A stretch of 17,345 nucleotides of DNA from IMG/VR virus record IMGVR_UViG_2713897073_000004, one strand, 5' to 3'. The stretch's first letter is position 1. The number at the start of each line of letters is the position of its first letter. Both the position numbers and the translations under genes were made by a program. Shown one piece after another: positions 10,098 to 17,345 of this stretch. The notes beneath the pieces are model-generated. The model did not search any database. It was given only the letters and a program-made list of their open reading frames with translations, and was not told where the DNA came from. This DNA comes from a virus. Taxonomy: Duplodnaviria > Heunggongvirae > Uroviricota > Caudoviricetes.

Positions 10098-10775
10098 ATG
10101 GCAATGGGTCCGTTAACCATTGGTCGCCCGACTGAGGCGAAAATCAACAGCACAAGCAACGATAGCAACGGTAGAACAACTAAAGGGGGTAACGGCTTTG
10201 CGATCATTACCTCTAATCTCGGCAGTGGTGCAAATGCTGCTTACAATGACTACCAGGCATTATCATTTGATAGCGTGGAATCGACGAGAGTTAGCAGAAA
10301 TGCAGACGTTACAAGCTATGCTGTCGAATCAGGATCAGAAGTTAGTGATCATGTTCAAATACGGAATAACAAGTTCACATTACAAGGGCGTATCTCTGAA
10401 ACCGTATTGAAGCTCAATCCTGATATGATTAAGAATGCTGGAATTAACGGCAATCGACGTATGCTTATGCTTGAATACCTAAATCAGTTGATGGACAGTC
10501 GCCAACCTTTCCTACTTGTCACTGAGTTAAAAAATTATGACAACGTTGTGTTAGTTGGCATGTCTTACGCAGAAGAAGCAAGCGAAAGCCTATTGTTTAC
10601 TCTTGATTTTGAGCAAATCCGTCTTGTCTCTAAAGCAACTACAAGCGCAATTGCGGTAAAAACAGCACCAAATAAATCTGTAGGAGGCCAGGTTAAAATG
10701 CAGGTAAATACAACAGAACAGAAAAATCAAAAAAGCCCAGGGCAAGACGTTGTAACGCCAGTATTTAAACAATAG
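10098..10775 (+). CDS. hypothetical protein (225 aa), S/T/N/G-rich N-terminus
   Basis: ATG 10098 with AAGGA upstream; last gene of the cargo operon; the overlapping alternate-frame track ORF 10120-10410 is rejected. Confidence 0.7.
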   Translation: MAMGPLTIGRPTEAKINSTSNDSNGRTTKGGNGFAIITSNLGSGANAAYNDYQALSFDSVESTRVSRNADVTSYAVESGSEVSDHVQIRNNKFTLQGRISETVLKLNPDMIKNAGINGNRRMLMLEYLNQLMDSRQPFLLVTELKNYDNVVLVGMSYAEEASESLLFTLDFEQIRLVSKATTSAIAVKTAPNKSVGGQVKMQVNTTEQKNQKSPGQDVVTPVFKQ

Positions 10776-10855: not shown

Positions 10856-12133
10856 CTATAGCGTTGTTTTACGCCTTAAATTTGATTTTTTATTGATTGA
10901 TAAGCCTTTCTCTATTTCAGGATAGCGTAAAAGCTCAATATATTTTTTAAGCTCTACTGGAGAAGCTGCATTTTTGCTATATGTGCGGAATGTTTCTGTA
11001 TTGCCGCGTGTATGGCCCAGGAGAAGGGCGATCCTGTCTTCTGGAATTTGATTTCGATCAAGAAGCTGTGCTACTCCGTGTCTCAGAGAATGAAACACTT
11101 TCCTTTCTGTTCCCTTTTCCCCTAAAGCCTTTCGTTTAGCTCTTGTAAATCGTTGTGTATGCCACGTAGAGCGTTTACCGTCAGCACGCTCTGTAATGCT
11201 GGCGTGATAGAACAAAAAGCCATTGTGAGGCTTTTCACGAAGAGATAACACCAATGGAGTGATAAGGCTATGCACAGGCACAAGACGTGCCGCAGCTTTC
11301 GTTTTTCCCTGTGTGATTTCAAAACACAGCACACCTTCGATCTCTTTCACATCGTCTATTGTGAGACTTGCTATCTCATTGATCCGCATCCCTGTATATA
11401 AACCGATAAGACATAAAGCCGTCATTTCTTTGTTTTCTGCTGAATTACCGGAAAATACTTGCAACACCTGCAATAGCTCTTTGTTAGAAAATGCCTCGTA
11501 GCTCTCTCTACTTTGTGCCACATCAAGCCTATGCCCTCGCCAGGGGGAGAGCGCCCTTTCTGGCGCATCGTGGTAACGTGATGAAGCTAATTCCCATAGC
11601 TGGGCCATTGGGCTGATATAATTTGCAATTGATTGTTGTGAAAGAGTTTTTTGCATGTGTTCAATCCAGCCTGTAACAGTGGTGCGGCTTACATCTTGCA
11701 ATGCAATATCAGGCTTTTTACGGTAGGAGAGAAACATCTCTACCGCTTTTCTTGCCTTAGCTAAAGTGGCTGGCTTCTTCTTCGTGCTGTTAATTGTCAG
11801 GTAGATTTCAAGAATTTTAAGCAATGACGGACACGAAGACGCTGTATCTTGCATTCTGGTAGCTGTTTTGGCGTATTTAGCCTTACTGCGTAACAGTTCC
11901 AGCGTGTTTTCTATTGTGCTGTTTACAGGGGCAACACTCTCCCGTAAGCAATGGTATTCATCTGCAATCTGATCACGCTTTCTACGTGCAACACGAAGAT
12001 TACTTGTGTGCAGACTTCTGACAAACGTCCTTTTTCCTTCAAAAAAGGGCTGCATATACACAGGCAGCGTGATCCTTAAATAGTAGTTACCGTAAGAATC
12101 ACAGATTAAGTATTGGTTAGGCTTGTATCTCAT
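10856..12133 (-). CDS. tyrosine site-specific recombinase/integrase with DUF6538-like N-terminal domain
   Basis: Catalytic signature of tyrosine recombinases: TGMRINEIASL (Arg), VFHSLRHGVAQLL (HxxR), LLGHTRGNTETFRTYS (His...Tyr). N-terminus YLICDSYGNYYLRITLP...GKRTFVRSLHTSN fits the YYFRRR-type arm domain. Start placed at the internal ATG 12133 (GGAG 5 nt upstream); the track start at 12190 has no RBS. Confidence 0.85.
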   Translation of the reverse strand: MRYKPNQYLICDSYGNYYLRITLPVYMQPFFEGKRTFVRSLHTSNLRVARRKRDQIADEYHCLRESVAPVNSTIENTLELLRSKAKYAKTATRMQDTASSCPSLLKILEIYLTINSTKKKPATLAKARKAVEMFLSYRKKPDIALQDVSRTTVTGWIEHMQKTLSQQSIANYISPMAQLWELASSRYHDAPERALSPWRGHRLDVAQSRESYEAFSNKELLQVLQVFSGNSAENKEMTALCLIGLYTGMRINEIASLTIDDVKEIEGVLCFEITQGKTKAAARLVPVHSLITPLVLSLREKPHNGFLFYHASITERADGKRSTWHTQRFTRAKRKALGEKGTERKVFHSLRHGVAQLLDRNQIPEDRIALLLGHTRGNTETFRTYSKNAASPVELKKYIELLRYPEIEKGLSINKKSNLRRKTTL

Positions 12134-12310
12134 AAAATCTCCGGCTAAAGTGTCGGAGCGTTTGTAATGTGAAAATTGATTGTGACGCATAGAAAATGAT
12201 TATTTTTCTATAAGATTCAATCAATTAGTAATGGTCGTAGTGATGGCATTAACACGAGATTAATCGAGTGTTTTACTCCTATTATCGGCACCATTCAAAC
12301 ATCTCCCCAA

Positions 12311-12458: not shown

Positions 12459-13673
12459 GTGAAACTCAATGCCCGTCAAATAGACACAGCCAAGCCAAAA
12501 GAGAAGGCTTACAAGCTGGCCGATGGTGGCGGTTTGTATCTCTTGGTAAAACCTAATGGAGGTAAATACTGGCGACTTAAATATCGTGTAGCAGGTAAAG
12601 AGAAGCTATTGGCACTAGGTGTGTATCCTGAGGTTACTCTAGCCGATGCTCGGGCAAAACGTGAAGATGCGAAAAGAGGTATCGCTGGTGGTATCGATCC
12701 GATGGAAGCGAAACGAGAGGAAAAGATTGCCCGGGAAACGCAGTTAAACAACACCTTCAAAGATATTGCCCTTGAGTGGCACAGCAGCAAATTAAAAAAA
12801 TGGTCTGCTGGTTATGCTTCAGACATCCTCGAAGCCTTCAACAAAGATGTGTTCCCTTACATTGGCAAAAAACCAATCGCCGAAATCAAACCACTTGAAC
12901 TTCTGAATGTGCTGCGGCGCATCGAGGGGCGCGGTGCGACAGAAAAAGCCAAAAAAGTGAGGCAGCGGTGCGGGGAAGTTTTCCGCTATGCAATAGTCAC
13001 TGGTCGCGCAGAGTATAACCCTGCACCAGACCTTACTAGCGCGATGCAAGGCCATGAATCTAATCATTACCCTTTCCTTACGACCAAAGAATTACCTGAT
13101 TTTTTCAAGGCATTATCCAGTTACTCAGGAAGCGCATTGGTTGTTATGGCGGCTCGCCTACTGATTATCACCGGCTTGCGAACTGGCGAACTACGTGGCG
13201 CATTATGGGATGAAATTGATTTCAACAAGGCTATATGGGAGATACCCGCTTCACGTATGAAAATGCGGCGGCCTCATATTGTGCCATTGTCTGAGCAGGC
13301 TCTTTCGCTTATTGGGAAGATTAGAGAAATAACAGGCAATTACCCTCTTATGTTTCCCGGGCGCAATGATCCAAGGAAAACAATGAGTGAGGCCAGCATA
13401 AACCAAGTGTTTAAGCGCATTGGCTACGCTGGACGTGTAACTGGTCATGGGTTCCGACACACTATGAGCACGATTTTGCATGAGCAGGGCTATAACACCG
13501 CGTGGATAGAAACGCAGCTCGCTCACGTTGATAAGAACTCAATTCGTGGCACATACAACCATGCGCAATATCTGGATGGACGGCGGGAGATGCTTCAATG
13601 GTATGCCGACTATATGGATTCTCTCGAGCATGGCGGAAATGTGGTGCATATGGTGTTTGAAAAACACGCATGA
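12459..13673 (+). CDS. int: P4-family tyrosine integrase
   Basis: GTG start 12459 with GGAGG 9 nt upstream. N-terminal arm-binding domain typical of P4-type integrases (AKPKEKAYKLADGGGLYLLVKPNGGKYWRLKYR), catalytic Arg (ITGLRTGELR), HxxR (GHGFRHTMST), and C-terminal LAHVDKNSIRGTYNHAQYLDGRREMLQWYADYMD with the catalytic Tyr. Confidence 0.92.
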   Translation: MKLNARQIDTAKPKEKAYKLADGGGLYLLVKPNGGKYWRLKYRVAGKEKLLALGVYPEVTLADARAKREDAKRGIAGGIDPMEAKREEKIARETQLNNTFKDIALEWHSSKLKKWSAGYASDILEAFNKDVFPYIGKKPIAEIKPLELLNVLRRIEGRGATEKAKKVRQRCGEVFRYAIVTGRAEYNPAPDLTSAMQGHESNHYPFLTTKELPDFFKALSSYSGSALVVMAARLLIITGLRTGELRGALWDEIDFNKAIWEIPASRMKMRRPHIVPLSEQALSLIGKIREITGNYPLMFPGRNDPRKTMSEASINQVFKRIGYAGRVTGHGFRHTMSTILHEQGYNTAWIETQLAHVDKNSIRGTYNHAQYLDGRREMLQWYADYMDSLEHGGNVVHMVFEKHA

Positions 13674-14100: not shown

Positions 14101-14304
14101 ATGGCTAATTACAATTCATTAATTCGTCTCTCTGAAGTTCAAAGGCGAACTGGTTATAGCAAAGCATGGATTTATCGTCTTATTAGTCAGGGGAGGTTCC
14201 CTAAACAGGTAAAAATTGGAAGTCGGGCAATTGCTTTTGTTGAGTCTGAAATAGATGAATGGATTGAGAAGTGTATATTAGAATCTAGAGACGAGGTGGC
14301 CTGA
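14101..14304 (+). CDS. alpA: AlpA/Vis-family transcriptional regulator (excisionase-like HTH)
   Basis: 67 aa; LIRLSEVQRRTGYSKAWIYRLISQGRFPKQVKIGSRAIAFVESEIDEWI is the classic AlpA signature; positioned just downstream of a P4-type int, as in P4-like islands. Confidence 0.85.
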   Translation: MANYNSLIRLSEVQRRTGYSKAWIYRLISQGRFPKQVKIGSRAIAFVESEIDEWIEKCILESRDEVA

Positions 14305-14747: not shown

Positions 14748-15581
14748 ATGAACATCGAAAAAAGCAGATTAATTTCTGAGGCCGCCCCTCATCTGAACGC
14801 CTCTCTGGGCACAATTAACGGTAATGAATTTGCCGCAATTGTCCCGGTTATTTCTGGTCATATAGGCGGGCGTGAAACCAATATTGTTAGCGCAAAAGCG
14901 TTACACAAAGCGTTGGGCGTGGGAAAAGACTTCTCTACATGGATCACTGATCGCATCTCTGAATATGACTTCACCATTGGGCACGATTACTCAGTCCATA
15001 AAACAATTTCCCCAAATTTGGGGAAAAGCCCGAATGACGCGGCTTACAGCAAGATTAAGCAGTCTGGCAGACCCGGCAAAGACTATCTGTTAAGTGTCGG
15101 AATGGCGAAAGAACTGGCAATGATCGAACGCAATGATCAGGGTCGCGCTATCCGCCGTTATTTCATCCAGTGCGAGAAAGAATTACAGCGTAGCGTGCCT
15201 GAAATCGCCGCCCGCTATCGTCGCCAGCTAAAAGCCCGTATCAGTGCCGCAAACAACTTCAAGCCAATGTGCGATGCGCTGAATATGGCCCGTGCCGAGA
15301 TGGGGAAAACGACGCAGCAACACCACTACACAAACGAGAGCAATATGATTTCTCGTATCGTTCTTGGTGGGCTAACTGCTAAGCAGTGGGCGCGGATAAA
15401 TGGCTATTCTGGCGAACCTCGCGACCATATGAACGCAGAACAGCTTGAGCACCTCTCATATCTCGAAAGCACCAATATCACGTTAATTGATATGGGCATG
15501 GAATATGAGCAGCGCAAAGGAGAACTCACCCGCCTGTCGCAACGCTGGCTCGCCAAGCGTCTGGAGGCGGTCCATGTTTAA
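14748..15581 (+). CDS. putative antirepressor, AntA/AntB- or KilAC-like (277 aa)
   Basis: ATG 14748 with ACGGAG upstream. Segments FSTWITDRISEYDFTIGHDY and GKDYLLSVGMAKELAMIERNDQGRAIRRYFIQCE resemble phage antirepressor domains. Family assignment is from remembered motifs, not a search. Confidence 0.6.
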   Translation: MNIEKSRLISEAAPHLNASLGTINGNEFAAIVPVISGHIGGRETNIVSAKALHKALGVGKDFSTWITDRISEYDFTIGHDYSVHKTISPNLGKSPNDAAYSKIKQSGRPGKDYLLSVGMAKELAMIERNDQGRAIRRYFIQCEKELQRSVPEIAARYRRQLKARISAANNFKPMCDALNMARAEMGKTTQQHHYTNESNMISRIVLGGLTAKQWARINGYSGEPRDHMNAEQLEHLSYLESTNITLIDMGMEYEQRKGELTRLSQRWLAKRLEAVHV

Positions 15582-15756
15582 GCCGACAGGAACACCACAA
15601 CCTCAAAAACGCTACAAAGATGCCCACGGAGCACTCGTTACTGTCGAAAGCGTGTCTCACAACCGAGTGACGTTTTATCGCGACGGGTATCAATCGCCAT
15701 GCGTACAACCGCTGGCACGTTTCATGAAGGAGTTCGCGGAGGTTAACAAATGCTAA
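15574..15756 (+). CDS. hypothetical small protein (60 aa)
   Basis: Start taken at internal ATG 15574 (MFKPTGTPQPQKRYKDAHGALVTVESV...), which overlaps the AntA-like stop by 8 nt. The track ORF 15487-15756 extends upstream inside the preceding gene and is rejected as an N-terminal extension. Confidence 0.5.
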   Translation: MFKPTGTPQPQKRYKDAHGALVTVESVSHNRVTFYRDGYQSPCVQPLARFMKEFAEVNKC

Positions 15757-16382
15757 CCGCCCAGAAGAAGATATTTTCACTGGCTGGTATGTCGCCAAAA
15801 TCCAGCAATATGACAGCAAAGTCAGACATTAATACAGCAGATACAAGCAAAGTTTATCATTTGCTGGTGGTAGGAGCGGATGCCTTAACTATGTCAGAAA
15901 TTACGGTCGATGGTGTTAGCGTTGAGAAGGTCAGCGGCTATGCCAGAGAATTTCTGGTCGTAGATGACCTGTTCTGCTCGTGTAGTGACTCCACAAAAAC
16001 ATTCGTCCACGCGCGTGACGTTAACGAAATGAGCGCGATGTACTGTGCTTCTGGTTCTTCCAATAGTGAGTTTTCGGAGTCCATAAAAAAGAGCTTGCCG
16101 TTATGCGGCAACACGGTTTATGGTTATAAGGCACCTCATAAAACGGGTGCCGGGATTGGCGTCCTAAAAATTCTGAAGGCGACATATGACGCGCCGAGCG
16201 TCTTTTTTTATGTCGTAGGTCTGACTCACCCATTTTTTGGGCGTTGGTGTATAATCCAGCGCCTTTGTCAATCAATGGTGGCTCAGGCGGGGGCTTCTTC
16301 GGAAGCGCCGGTATCCATTCAGAGCCGGTTACGCCAACCCTGTCTGGGCTACCACCAGCGAAATTGGCGTTTCCGGTGGTAG
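15750..16382 (+). CDS. hypothetical protein; 3' boundary doubtful because the ORF runs through a terminator, a promoter and a structured RNA
   Basis: ATG 15750 overlaps the upstream stop (ATGCTAA), supporting a real 5' end. The last roughly 65 codons (from about 16188) overlap a GC hairpin plus T7 run, a TATAAT box and a stem-loop-rich region, and translate to low-plausibility sequence ([17 protein letters not shown]...RNWRFRW). Confidence 0.4.
16188..16209 (+). terminator. intrinsic terminator-like hairpin plus T-run
   Basis: GACGC (16188-16192), loop GCCGA, GCGTC (16198-16202), then TTTTTTT (16203-16209). Short GC-rich stem directly followed by seven T. Confidence 0.5.
16250..16255 (+). 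promoter_or_regulatory. candidate -10 element (TATAAT) for the leader RNA and downstream operon
   Basis: Perfect TATAAT at 16250-16255, about 40 nt after the terminator T-run; no good -35 hexamer at 16-18 bp spacing, so the promoter call is weak. Confidence 0.3.
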
Positions 16383-16393
16383 CGTAACCTGCT
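16276..16393 (+). ncRNA. candidate structured leader or antisense-type regulatory RNA (C4/CI-like immunity RNA or attenuator)
   Basis: GGCTTC-TTCG-GAAGC hairpin (16293-16306); TGGTGG (16276-16281) can pair with CCACCA (16352-16357), while CTACCACC (16349-16356) can alternatively pair with GGTGGTAG (16375-16382); AGCCGGTTACGC (16323-16334) is 11/12 complementary to GCGTAACCTGCT (16382-16393), which lies 8 nt upstream of the GGAGG of the next gene. Confidence 0.35.
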
Positions 16394-16412
16394 ATCTGAA
16401 GGAGGCTGCCAC

Positions 16413-16607
16413 ATGCTGGCTACTACCCCTACCCAAAAAACGCAATTTATCTGGATTATCGCCGCAGTTCGCCGCGATTGCCCGACAATTACCGCCAAAA
16501 TTCATCATATTGCTGCCGAGTCTGAACGCGATGCTCGCCGTTCTCTGGTGCGCGATCACGTCTGCTTTTTTGCTGGTCGTATCCGCATGGAGGTGGCACA
16601 TGATTAA
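16413..16607 (+). CDS. hypothetical small protein (64 aa)
   Basis: ATG 16413 with GGAGG 7 nt upstream; first gene after the structured leader. Confidence 0.6.
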   Translation: MLATTPTQKTQFIWIIAAVRRDCPTITAKIHHIAAESERDARRSLVRDHVCFFAGRIRMEVAHD

Positions 16608-16818
16608 AACCTACGATGTGCATATGGATCCCCTCGAACGCACAAGCCAGATCATCACACTGACAGAAGTGATTAACGACATTCTGGTGAGCAACTCTCC
16701 CTCACGAGACGAAAGACTGAAGGCGTTACTCGCGATATTGGATCTCGCCGTTCGTGACGTTCATTTCCTGCTGGAAGGTGGCGAAATGCCAGTAAAAACG
16801 GGGGCAACCAATGAATAA
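16600..16818 (+). CDS. hypothetical small protein (72 aa)
   Basis: Start at internal ATG 16600 (MIKTYDVHMDPLERT...), with GGAGG 16588-16592 upstream; overlaps the previous stop by 8 nt. The track ORF begins at 16510 inside the upstream gene. Confidence 0.6.
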   Translation: MIKTYDVHMDPLERTSQIITLTEVINDILVSNSPSRDERLKALLAILDLAVRDVHFLLEGGEMPVKTGATNE

Positions 16819-17005
16819 CTCAATTAATACCCCTCGCCTTACGTCCGCACTTCAATTAATCGAGCAAGCAGCGGCTGTCCTGGTTGCTGTCAGTCTTTCG
16901 GCTGAAGAAATGGACGCTGCTGATGTCGTGGATGCGATTAAAGCGTGCTCATCTTTGGTTAACGATGCCCGTGCAGAGCTGGTAATTCTTGGTGGTGAAA
17001 AATGA
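16811..17005 (+). CDS. hypothetical small protein (64 aa)
   Basis: ATG 16811 overlaps the upstream stop by 8 nt; alanine-rich helical sequence. Confidence 0.6.
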   Translation: MNNSINTPRLTSALQLIEQAAAVLVAVSLSAEEMDAADVVDAIKACSSLVNDARAELVILGGEK

Positions 17006-17265
17006 ATATCAACTTAATTTATCGTCATCCGTGTGAGCTGGAAATTGAATCATTGCTGGGGCGCGAAGAGCCATATCCAGACACATTCACTCCCGCAGAT
17101 TGCGCGACTGAACGGCTTACCAGAGCGCGCACAGGTCTGGTTCATGTGATGAATGAGATTATTCCCTCGGTGGGAGGGGAACAGGCGACAGTAATCAATA
17201 GCTGGCTACAAAAAGTTACCTCCCTGATAGATATCAGTTTAATCGATGTGGAGAGTGCGAAATGA
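17002..17265 (+). CDS. hypothetical protein (87 aa)
   Basis: ATG 17002 overlaps the upstream stop (ATGA). Confidence 0.6.
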   Translation: MNINLIYRHPCELEIESLLGREEPYPDTFTPADCATERLTRARTGLVHVMNEIIPSVGGEQATVINSWLQKVTSLIDISLIDVESAK

Positions 17266-17345
17266 CCAACATCCAGCTCATTGAAGCGCAATGTCGCATC
17301 GAACAGGTTCAGACTGTTTTAGGGTTCTGGCTTGAAGGGGCCAGC
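17262..17345 (+). CDS. hypothetical protein, 5' fragment (continues beyond window)
   Basis: ATG 17262 overlaps the upstream stop (ATGA); open to the window end (MTNIQLIEAQCRIEQVQTVLGFWLEGAS...). Confidence 0.5.
   Translation, partial: MTNIQLIEAQCRIEQVQTVLGFWLEGAS

Follow-up and report, generated by a model that had tools for sequence, protein, structure and literature searches.

What is encoded in the few hundred nucleotides (nt) that precede the small-gene operon starting at position 16413 of a 17,345-nt stretch of Caudoviricetes DNA (IMG/VR record IMGVR_UViG_2713897073_000004, referred to as the window), and is it a protein gene or a regulatory RNA? In relatives (loci L001, L110, and L111), this stretch carries the RefSeq label 'ash family protein' alone and no RNA gene, and that protein is given as 355 aa in some genomes and as a pseudogene in another relative. 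An earlier note on the window, made from its letters alone, had compared the region with the processed antisense immunity RNAs C4 of phage P1 and CI of P4. The comparison is supported here by Rfam, by homology with P4, and by the covariation of pairing boxes at a Shine-Dalgarno (SD) sequence, and, as judged from sequence, the stretch is very probably a P4-type IsrK(seqA)-C4(CI)-kil immunity switch of a P4-like satellite prophage of Escherichia coli. RNA immunity switches are a well-described kind of system, recognisable by a standard Rfam scan, and we know of no characterization of the specificity boxes of the window member. The analysis establishes the elements of the switch, their homology with P4, their structures, and that the boxes covary three ways; that C4 is processed by RNase P, that termination depends on Rho, and that translation permits escape would follow by analogy with P4 and P1.

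Two Structured RNAs Precede kil

A scan of the whole window against Rfam, proposed as a check in the earlier note, returned both C4 and IsrK at full length, above threshold, and on the + strand (Table 1). C4 scored 76.2 bits against a gathering score of 45, covering model positions 1-87 of 87 (E = 1.1e-13), and IsrK 59.9 bits against a gathering score of 50, covering positions 1-77 of 77 (E = 7e-11). C4 was present in all 18 sampled loci, 13 of which had IsrK at or above threshold. The GC hairpin followed by seven T residues, previously noticed as a terminator, was recovered at 16188-16209 by a terminator scan (stem GACGC/GCGTC, 16188-16202; T7, 16203-16209); its existence stands, and its ownership is corrected, as it forms the 3' end of the IsrK/seqA-like RNA and does not belong to the upstream gene.

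Table 1. Features of the immunity locus and of neighbouring genes, numbered as in the window
Feature	Position	Strand	Sequence or remark	Basis
IsrK/seqA-like leader RNA	16131-16208	+		Rfam RF01394
C4/CI antisense RNA	16271-16359	+		Rfam RF01695
Putative promoter homologous to P4 PLE	-35, 16095-16100; -10, 16119-16124	+	TTGCCG, 18-nt spacer, TATGGT	alignment
a1 box	16156-16162	+	TTGGCGT; loop of IsrK hairpin 2; complement of a'	
b1 box	16172-16179	+	TCTGAAGG; single-stranded in IsrK; complement of b'	
b' box	16315-16323	+	CCAUUCAGA (CCaUUCAGA); loop of C4 hairpin 2; A16317 inserted	
a' box	16331-16337	+	ACGCCAA; unpaired C4 junction	
a2 box	16364-16370	+	TTGGCGT; family-wide downstream target of a'	
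b2 box	16395-16402	+	TCTGAAGG; overlaps kil SD AGGAGG (16400-16405)	
Spacer hairpin	16240-16263	+	arms GGCGTTGG/CCAGCGCC, loop TGTATAAT	covariation
Alternative helix	16348-16356 with 16375-16383	+	C4 3' strand GCTACCACC with GGTGGTAGC	covariation
eta-like open reading frame (ORF; 'ash family protein')	15750-16382	+	spans putative internal promoter, IsrK, and C4	
kil/icd-like gene	16413-16607	+	64 aa; start codon 16413	NCBIfam phage_ICD_like, E = 3.9e-20
Translationally coupled small ORFs	16600-16818, 16811-17005, 17002-17265, one from 17262 (16600-17345)	+		stop/start overlaps
Tyrosine integrase	12459-13673	+		domain match
AlpA	14101-14304			domain match
AntA-domain protein	14748-15581			domain match
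DUF4222 protein	between alpA and eta-like ORF, along with AntA-domain gene			

Covariation was assessed on 107 stretches gathered from one-genome-per-species contigs by a 20-nt pattern of the C4 5' strand; nearly all are from Enterobacterales, with a few from metagenome-assembled genomes (MAGs) labelled otherwise. A total of 101 non-redundant loci, including the window, L001, and P4, were parsed, and pairs were counted on alignments of 95 loci and, without gaps, of 32 loci. L048, from a Chloroflexia MAG, was dropped as a match to the pattern without C4, and L005 and L044 were not parsable, the latter (from Chimaeribacter) having lost hairpin 2 and the b' box from its C4. The pattern contigs L033, L048, and L063 originate from MAGs with a Clostridiales, Bacillota, or Chloroflexia label; the two that hold a P4-type C4 (L033 and L063, L048 being without one) are probably mis-binned enterobacterial DNA.

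C4 (~16276-16357) has a tRNA-like acceptor stem followed by CCA at 16355-16357, features in keeping with a putative excision by RNase P. The closing stem (16276-16292 with 16338-16354) is paired in 99.5% of the cells of the 95-locus alignment, where its covariation is uninformative because the loci were selected on the C4 5' strand. The UUCG-tetraloop hairpin of the earlier note is present at 16293-16306 (GCUUC-UUCG-GAAGC) and corresponds to C4 hairpin 1, with 99.8% of cells paired and compensatory changes in four of five pairs, and hairpin 2 (16307-16329) is paired in 99.4% of cells in the same alignment. In the gapless 32-locus alignment, four of the seven pairs of IsrK hairpin 1 show compensatory changes. 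The predicted fold of the 290-nt leader has an energy of -125.2 kcal/mol (z = -5.4).

Two mutually exclusive stems had also been proposed. Of the one formed by TGGTGG (16276-16281) and CCACCA (16352-16357), the complementarity holds, but the conserved register of the closing stem lies 3 nt away. The other, CTACCACC (16349-16356) with GGTGGTAG (16375-16382), proved to be real and conserved, with 95.7% of cells paired and both changed positions compensated (two pairs, 20 loci of the P4 clade). This alternative helix takes up the CC of the terminal CCA of C4 and, in transcripts not yet processed, could form at the expense of the closing stem.

Just 5' of IsrK, the family has a -10 consensus TATAGT, of which T, A, and the final T are invariant in the 32 loci. 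The window sequence aligns with TTGCCT/TATAGT of P4, which is PLE, and from this likeness we infer promoter function for 16095-16124. The arms of the spacer hairpin (16240-16247 with 16256-16263) are paired in 91% of cells and changed on both sides in six of eight pairs in the 32-locus alignment, and the hairpin also appears in the predicted minimum-energy fold. The covariation of both arms argues that transcription enters the region from upstream and that the region functions as RNA. In the subfamily that has a 62-nt spacer, the hairpin follows the IsrK terminator and precedes C4, and its loop is moderately conserved (TTTCTATG/TGTATAAT).

Specificity Boxes and Their Targets

The scaffold of C4 is nearly constant, and its hypervariable parts are the b' box in the loop of hairpin 2 (46 variants) and the a' box in the unpaired junction (21 types), which occur in 60 combinations. 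Complements of both boxes were found at fixed positions, a1 and b1 within IsrK and 16 nt apart, a2 and b2 at ~9 and ~40 nt past C4, respectively. In the 95-locus alignment, a' and a2 are paired in 99.2% of cells with six of seven pairs changed on both sides, and b' and b2 in 93.3% of cells with eight of nine pairs changed on both sides, as compared with 33-47% of cells in slid controls. The upstream copies behave in the same manner in the 32 loci, where a1-a' is paired in 100% of cells (five of six pairs changed on both sides) and b1-b' in 99.6% (six of eight). An exact cognate complement of at least 7 nt was present in the 101 loci for a1 in 95%, for a2 in 95%, for b1 in 77%, and for b2 in 85%, as compared with 7-11% of non-cognate pairs (~11% for a1). 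The covariation in homologous loci that the earlier note had named as a further check is therefore found, with the a and b boxes of C4 covarying both with their copy in IsrK and with the copy before kil.

Pairing close to the ribosome-binding site of the next gene had been anticipated in a different form. The general claim stands through b2, which lies on the SD; the targets are corrected to 16364-16370 and 16395-16402. The site that had been singled out, an 11/12 complementarity between C4 at 16323-16334 (AGCCGGTTACGC) and 16382-16393 (GCGTAACCTGCT), is present and unlikely to be due to chance, its score being reached by 7 of 2000 leader shuffles, but it is confined to a lineage and is not a family-wide target. 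An exact 8-nt complement at this position was found in the window and L001 only; in a reading by eye, Raoultella L016 matched 10 of the 12 positions at this place, L028 matched in part, with a bulge, and other genera sharing the a' box showed no full match. As the primary target it is displaced by the conserved a2 and b2 boxes, and it may extend the b'-b2 duplex as a lineage-specific extra contact.

A few genomes with more than one copy of the locus were checked by eye, and their copies differ in at least one box; examples are Rahnella sp. S5-11 (L014, L015, and L079) and Ewingella americana E4 (L029, L051, and L072).

The eta-like Reading Frame and the kil Operon

The ORF that spans the putative promoter, IsrK, and C4 is the counterpart of P4 eta. 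In P4, the initiating ATG of the corresponding ORF coincides in part with the stop codon of the alpA homologue, and the frame continues into kil; in the window, the ORF lies in the kil frame and stops at TAG 16380-16382. Pfam Phage_ASH matches residues 124-192 (nt 16119-16325), and the first 65 positions of this model match the translation of IsrK and of the 5' half of C4. Across the 101 loci, the eta-like frame is free of stops from IsrK to C4 in 72 and in frame with kil in 53, and 24 have no open frame.

In PMC10111431 (citing Forti 1999), P4 eta is described as containing the constitutive promoter, seqA, and CI, P4 Kil as a truncated Eta, and translation of eta from a late upstream promoter as preventing termination. 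The earlier note had held that translation of ORF 15750-16382 would speak against a structured RNA. It would not refute the RNA, since P4 eta is translated across seqA and CI from late transcripts (PMC10111431); translation of the ORF would thus be part of the system rather than counter-evidence. That the 'Ash' ORF is a purely spurious translation of RNA genes had been suggested by the coincidence of the Phage_ASH match with IsrK and half of C4 and by a lack of codon periodicity; this notion was revised, given the frame open in 72 of the 101 loci, the kil frame kept in 53, and eta in the P4 literature.

The gene at 16413, which would be the first translated in the controlled operon, encodes an Icd-like protein that shares 42% identity with P4 Kil (E = 7e-10). 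In near-identical genomes (L001 and L110), the chain of small coupled ORFs that follows leads to a primase-helicase or DUF5906 gene. Domain searches found no Ant domain in the coupled downstream ORFs, and the P1-type order of icd then ant was not encountered. Of the antirepressor-like gene previously noticed nearby, the AntA-domain gene itself (14748-15581) is confirmed; it lies upstream, outside the controlled operon.

Proposed Mechanism

By analogy with P4 and P1, the putative promoter inside the eta-like ORF would give a transcript starting at ~16131. Its first 78 nt would constitute the IsrK/seqA module, carrying a1 and b1 and closing with the intrinsic terminator. Transcripts that read through, past the spacer hairpin, would include C4, a tRNA-like cloverleaf with a terminal CCA that would be excised and persist as a small RNA. 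In trans, a' and b' of C4 would then pair with a2 and b2, and, with b2 on the kil/icd-like ribosome-binding site, C4 would block translation of kil. If kil is not translated, the coupled downstream genes would remain untranslated and would not be fully transcribed, leaving the element quiescent. The a1 and b1 copies in IsrK would present a second, upstream target of C4, and free IsrK might titrate C4. Late transcripts arising further upstream would be translated throughout as the eta-like ORF and would in this manner escape the block.

Comparison with P4, P1/P7, and Gifsy-1

The window is most closely comparable with P4 over 16177-16434, where its DNA is 75% identical to the immunity region of P4 (P4 8347-8646), and the P4 regions match the same Rfam models (CI, 74.9 bits; seqA, IsrK at 60.8 bits and c4-a1b1 at 44.1 bits). 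Both have the element order PLE, seqA, cI, seqC, and kil, with a PLE-like promoter and an eta-like ORF over the RNAs, and in both, each of the a and b boxes is present three times and b2 overlaps the SD of the Kil homologue. The element in the window, like P4, includes an integrase and an AlpA/Vis-type gene, with a primase downstream in relatives. IsrK and C4 have been equated with seqA and CI in P4-like prophages (PMC3632133; PMC4825925).

The differences from P4 concern the boxes above all. The a' box is ACGCCAA in the window and UUCUCAC in P4, the b' box is CC(A)UUCAGA as opposed to CCUGUGAA, and the target copies of both boxes differ accordingly, being GTGAGAA and TTCACAGG in P4, as would be expected if the immunity specificity is a different one. 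As both specificity boxes differ, cross-immunity with P4 is not expected. Furthermore, the spacer from IsrK to C4 is 45 nt shorter in the window and contains a different hairpin, a stop separates the eta-like ORF from kil, and the AntA-domain and DUF4222 genes are located between alpA and eta.

The immI locus of P1/P7 has a C4 of the same Rfam family, a1 and b1 copies upstream, and loop and junction boxes that pair with a2 and b2, where an Icd-type gene, translationally coupled to the genes downstream, has its ribosome-binding site; P1-like phages match the IsrK part of the window at ~80% identity. The controlled product in P1 is the antirepressor Ant, whereas the genes controlled in the window lead to replication functions and its AntA-domain gene is positioned upstream, outside the controlled operon.

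The isrK-orf45-anrP region of Salmonella Gifsy-1 (IsrK, STnc1160) resembles the window in the IsrK terminator and in the complementarity of IsrK to RNA encoded downstream (PMC4825925). The intrinsic terminator of Gifsy-1 IsrK is read through in part, the sequence downstream of IsrK gives rise to a processed ~80-nt RNA, and IsrK activates translation of the downstream orf45 and anrP in trans (PMC4825925). Gifsy-1 differs in being a lambdoid prophage with an antirepressor downstream, for which the demonstrated effect is activation in trans by IsrK.

The Window Allele

The region 15700-17345 is 99.6% identical to sequences in many complete E. coli genomes; of 5426 complete genomes compared, 1207 contain a match and 477 match at least 80% of the 1646-nt query. 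Compared with the closest E. coli genome, the window has five substitutions (15967-15972 and 16001) and an A inserted at 16317. The 15 best E. coli matches are all 1645 nt long, as opposed to 1646 nt for the query, consistent with an insertion of 1 nt. The five substitutions cluster within 35 nt in the N-terminal part of the eta-like ORF. The insertion shifts the eta-like frame, which then stops at TAG 16380-16382. The canonical allele without the insertion was found in 13 viral contigs; the exact allele with A16317 was found neither in viral or metagenome collections nor in the closest genome, and A16317 may be a private mutation or a sequencing error.

Alternative Explanations

Several observations count against the identification of the locus as a P4-type immunity switch. 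The 20-nt C4 5'-strand pattern by which the loci were gathered biases the sample to P4-type scaffolds, the window reaches neither the primase gene nor the operon end, and the eta-like ORF is stopped before kil, unlike in P4 and in 53 of the 101 loci. The inserted A16317 cuts the contiguous pairing of b' from 8-9 nt to 6 nt and a bulge, and, with the insertion located in the b' loop, repression may be weaker or lost here. On the last of these points, the extra A and the stop between the eta-like ORF and kil could mark the locus as a decayed, non-functional remnant, as could two further observations: the allele was found neither in the closest E. coli genome nor in viral or metagenome collections, and RefSeq marks the ORF as a pseudogene in one relative. 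Against this, all other elements are intact, the insertion-free allele is 99.6% identical and widespread in the 477 genomes above, and A16317 could be a sequencing error; moreover, the pairing that is left (six pairs in a row, two beyond the bulge, the 7-nt a box, and the 11/12 contact) may suffice for repression. Decay is consequently considered very unlikely. A further idea, offered with little confidence, is that the C4 boxes form a combinatorial immunity barcode across P4-like satellites and that the window allele is a functional variant in specificity or strength, partly derepressed or re-targeted, and not a defect; the barcode draws on the 60 box combinations and on the differing copies within genomes, and the variant on the bulged b' loop, the 11/12 contact beside b2, and the uncoupling of the eta-like ORF from kil.

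Other explanations concern the logic of the locus as a whole. The perfect TATAAT at 16250-16255, which the earlier note had taken for a promoter, is indeed present 20 nt 5' of the C4 closing stem and could provide an independent promoter for constitutive C4, and -10-like hexamers (TATACT and TATGCT) are found at a similar position in some relatives. The promoter scan, however, found no acceptable -35 for it, and the hexamer lies in the loop of the spacer hairpin, both arms of which covary and would hence be transcribed from upstream. It is also confined to E. coli and Raoultella loci, and CI of P4 is a product processed from PLE transcripts. TATAAT is therefore set aside as probably not the C4 promoter, and a constitutive promoter at this position appears unlikely. 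That the region is simply protein-coding (Ash/Eta), with the RNA matches as by-products of a conserved coding sequence, would fit the frame open over IsrK and C4 in 72 of the 101 loci and the match of its translation to Phage_ASH. No codon periodicity was observed across IsrK to C4, however, the entropy at the three codon positions being 0.454, 0.462, and 0.482 with no excess of variation at the third, which indicates that conservation here is driven by the RNAs. Compensatory changes in four helices and as many intermolecular box pairings, the 24 loci without any open frame, and the RNA function that is established alongside eta in P4 (PMC10111431) add to this, making a coding-only explanation scarcely credible. 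An activation of the Gifsy-1 IsrK type could alternatively be the main logic, with C4 acting mainly as a cis structure rather than as a trans repressor: the C4 region would fold in cis against IsrK and so keep the read-through transcript translationally inactive, and the short IsrK, acting in trans, would open the ribosome-binding site of the first ORF. The full-length IsrK match bearing a1 and b1 complementary to C4 is in keeping with this, and so is the precedent of orf45/anrP activation in trans with its processed ~80-nt RNA downstream (PMC4825925). Yet the context in the window is that of a P4-like satellite (integrase, AlpA, kil, and primase) and not of a lambdoid antirepressor operon, and the downstream a2 and b2 boxes at the SD equal a1 and b1 in the strength of their covariation, for which an activator-only model has no need. 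As the main logic, such activation is possible but doubtful; activation of the Gifsy-1 type and repression by C4 are not mutually exclusive modes.

Genomic Setting and Implications

With respect to the satellite gene set, the integrase and AlpA lie within the window, and the primase-helicase/DUF5906 gene only in near-identical relatives, past the end of the window. Two tyrosine integrase genes stand back to back, at 10856-12190 (-) and 12459-13673 (+), and the left 12 kb include a resolvase gene (704-1261, -) and a gene for a Dit-like tail protein (10098-10775). The back-to-back integrases and the genes on the left suggest a second mobile element abutting the satellite. A tRNA search of the window found no tRNA gene, and hence no tRNA-gene attachment site is visible in it. 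Other Rfam RNAs occur near the immunity locus in relatives, int-alpA in L016 and STAXI and EFASI in L024, L026, and L055; none of the three reached threshold in the window.

The results leave the current understanding of the mechanism unchanged. What is gained is annotation, in that the true functional content of a stretch labelled as a single protein gene is very probably a promoter, two regulatory RNAs, and their targets. As a P4-type immunity switch, the locus would decide whether or not a widespread E. coli satellite prophage is silent, and the sequences of its boxes would predict mutual immunity among satellites.

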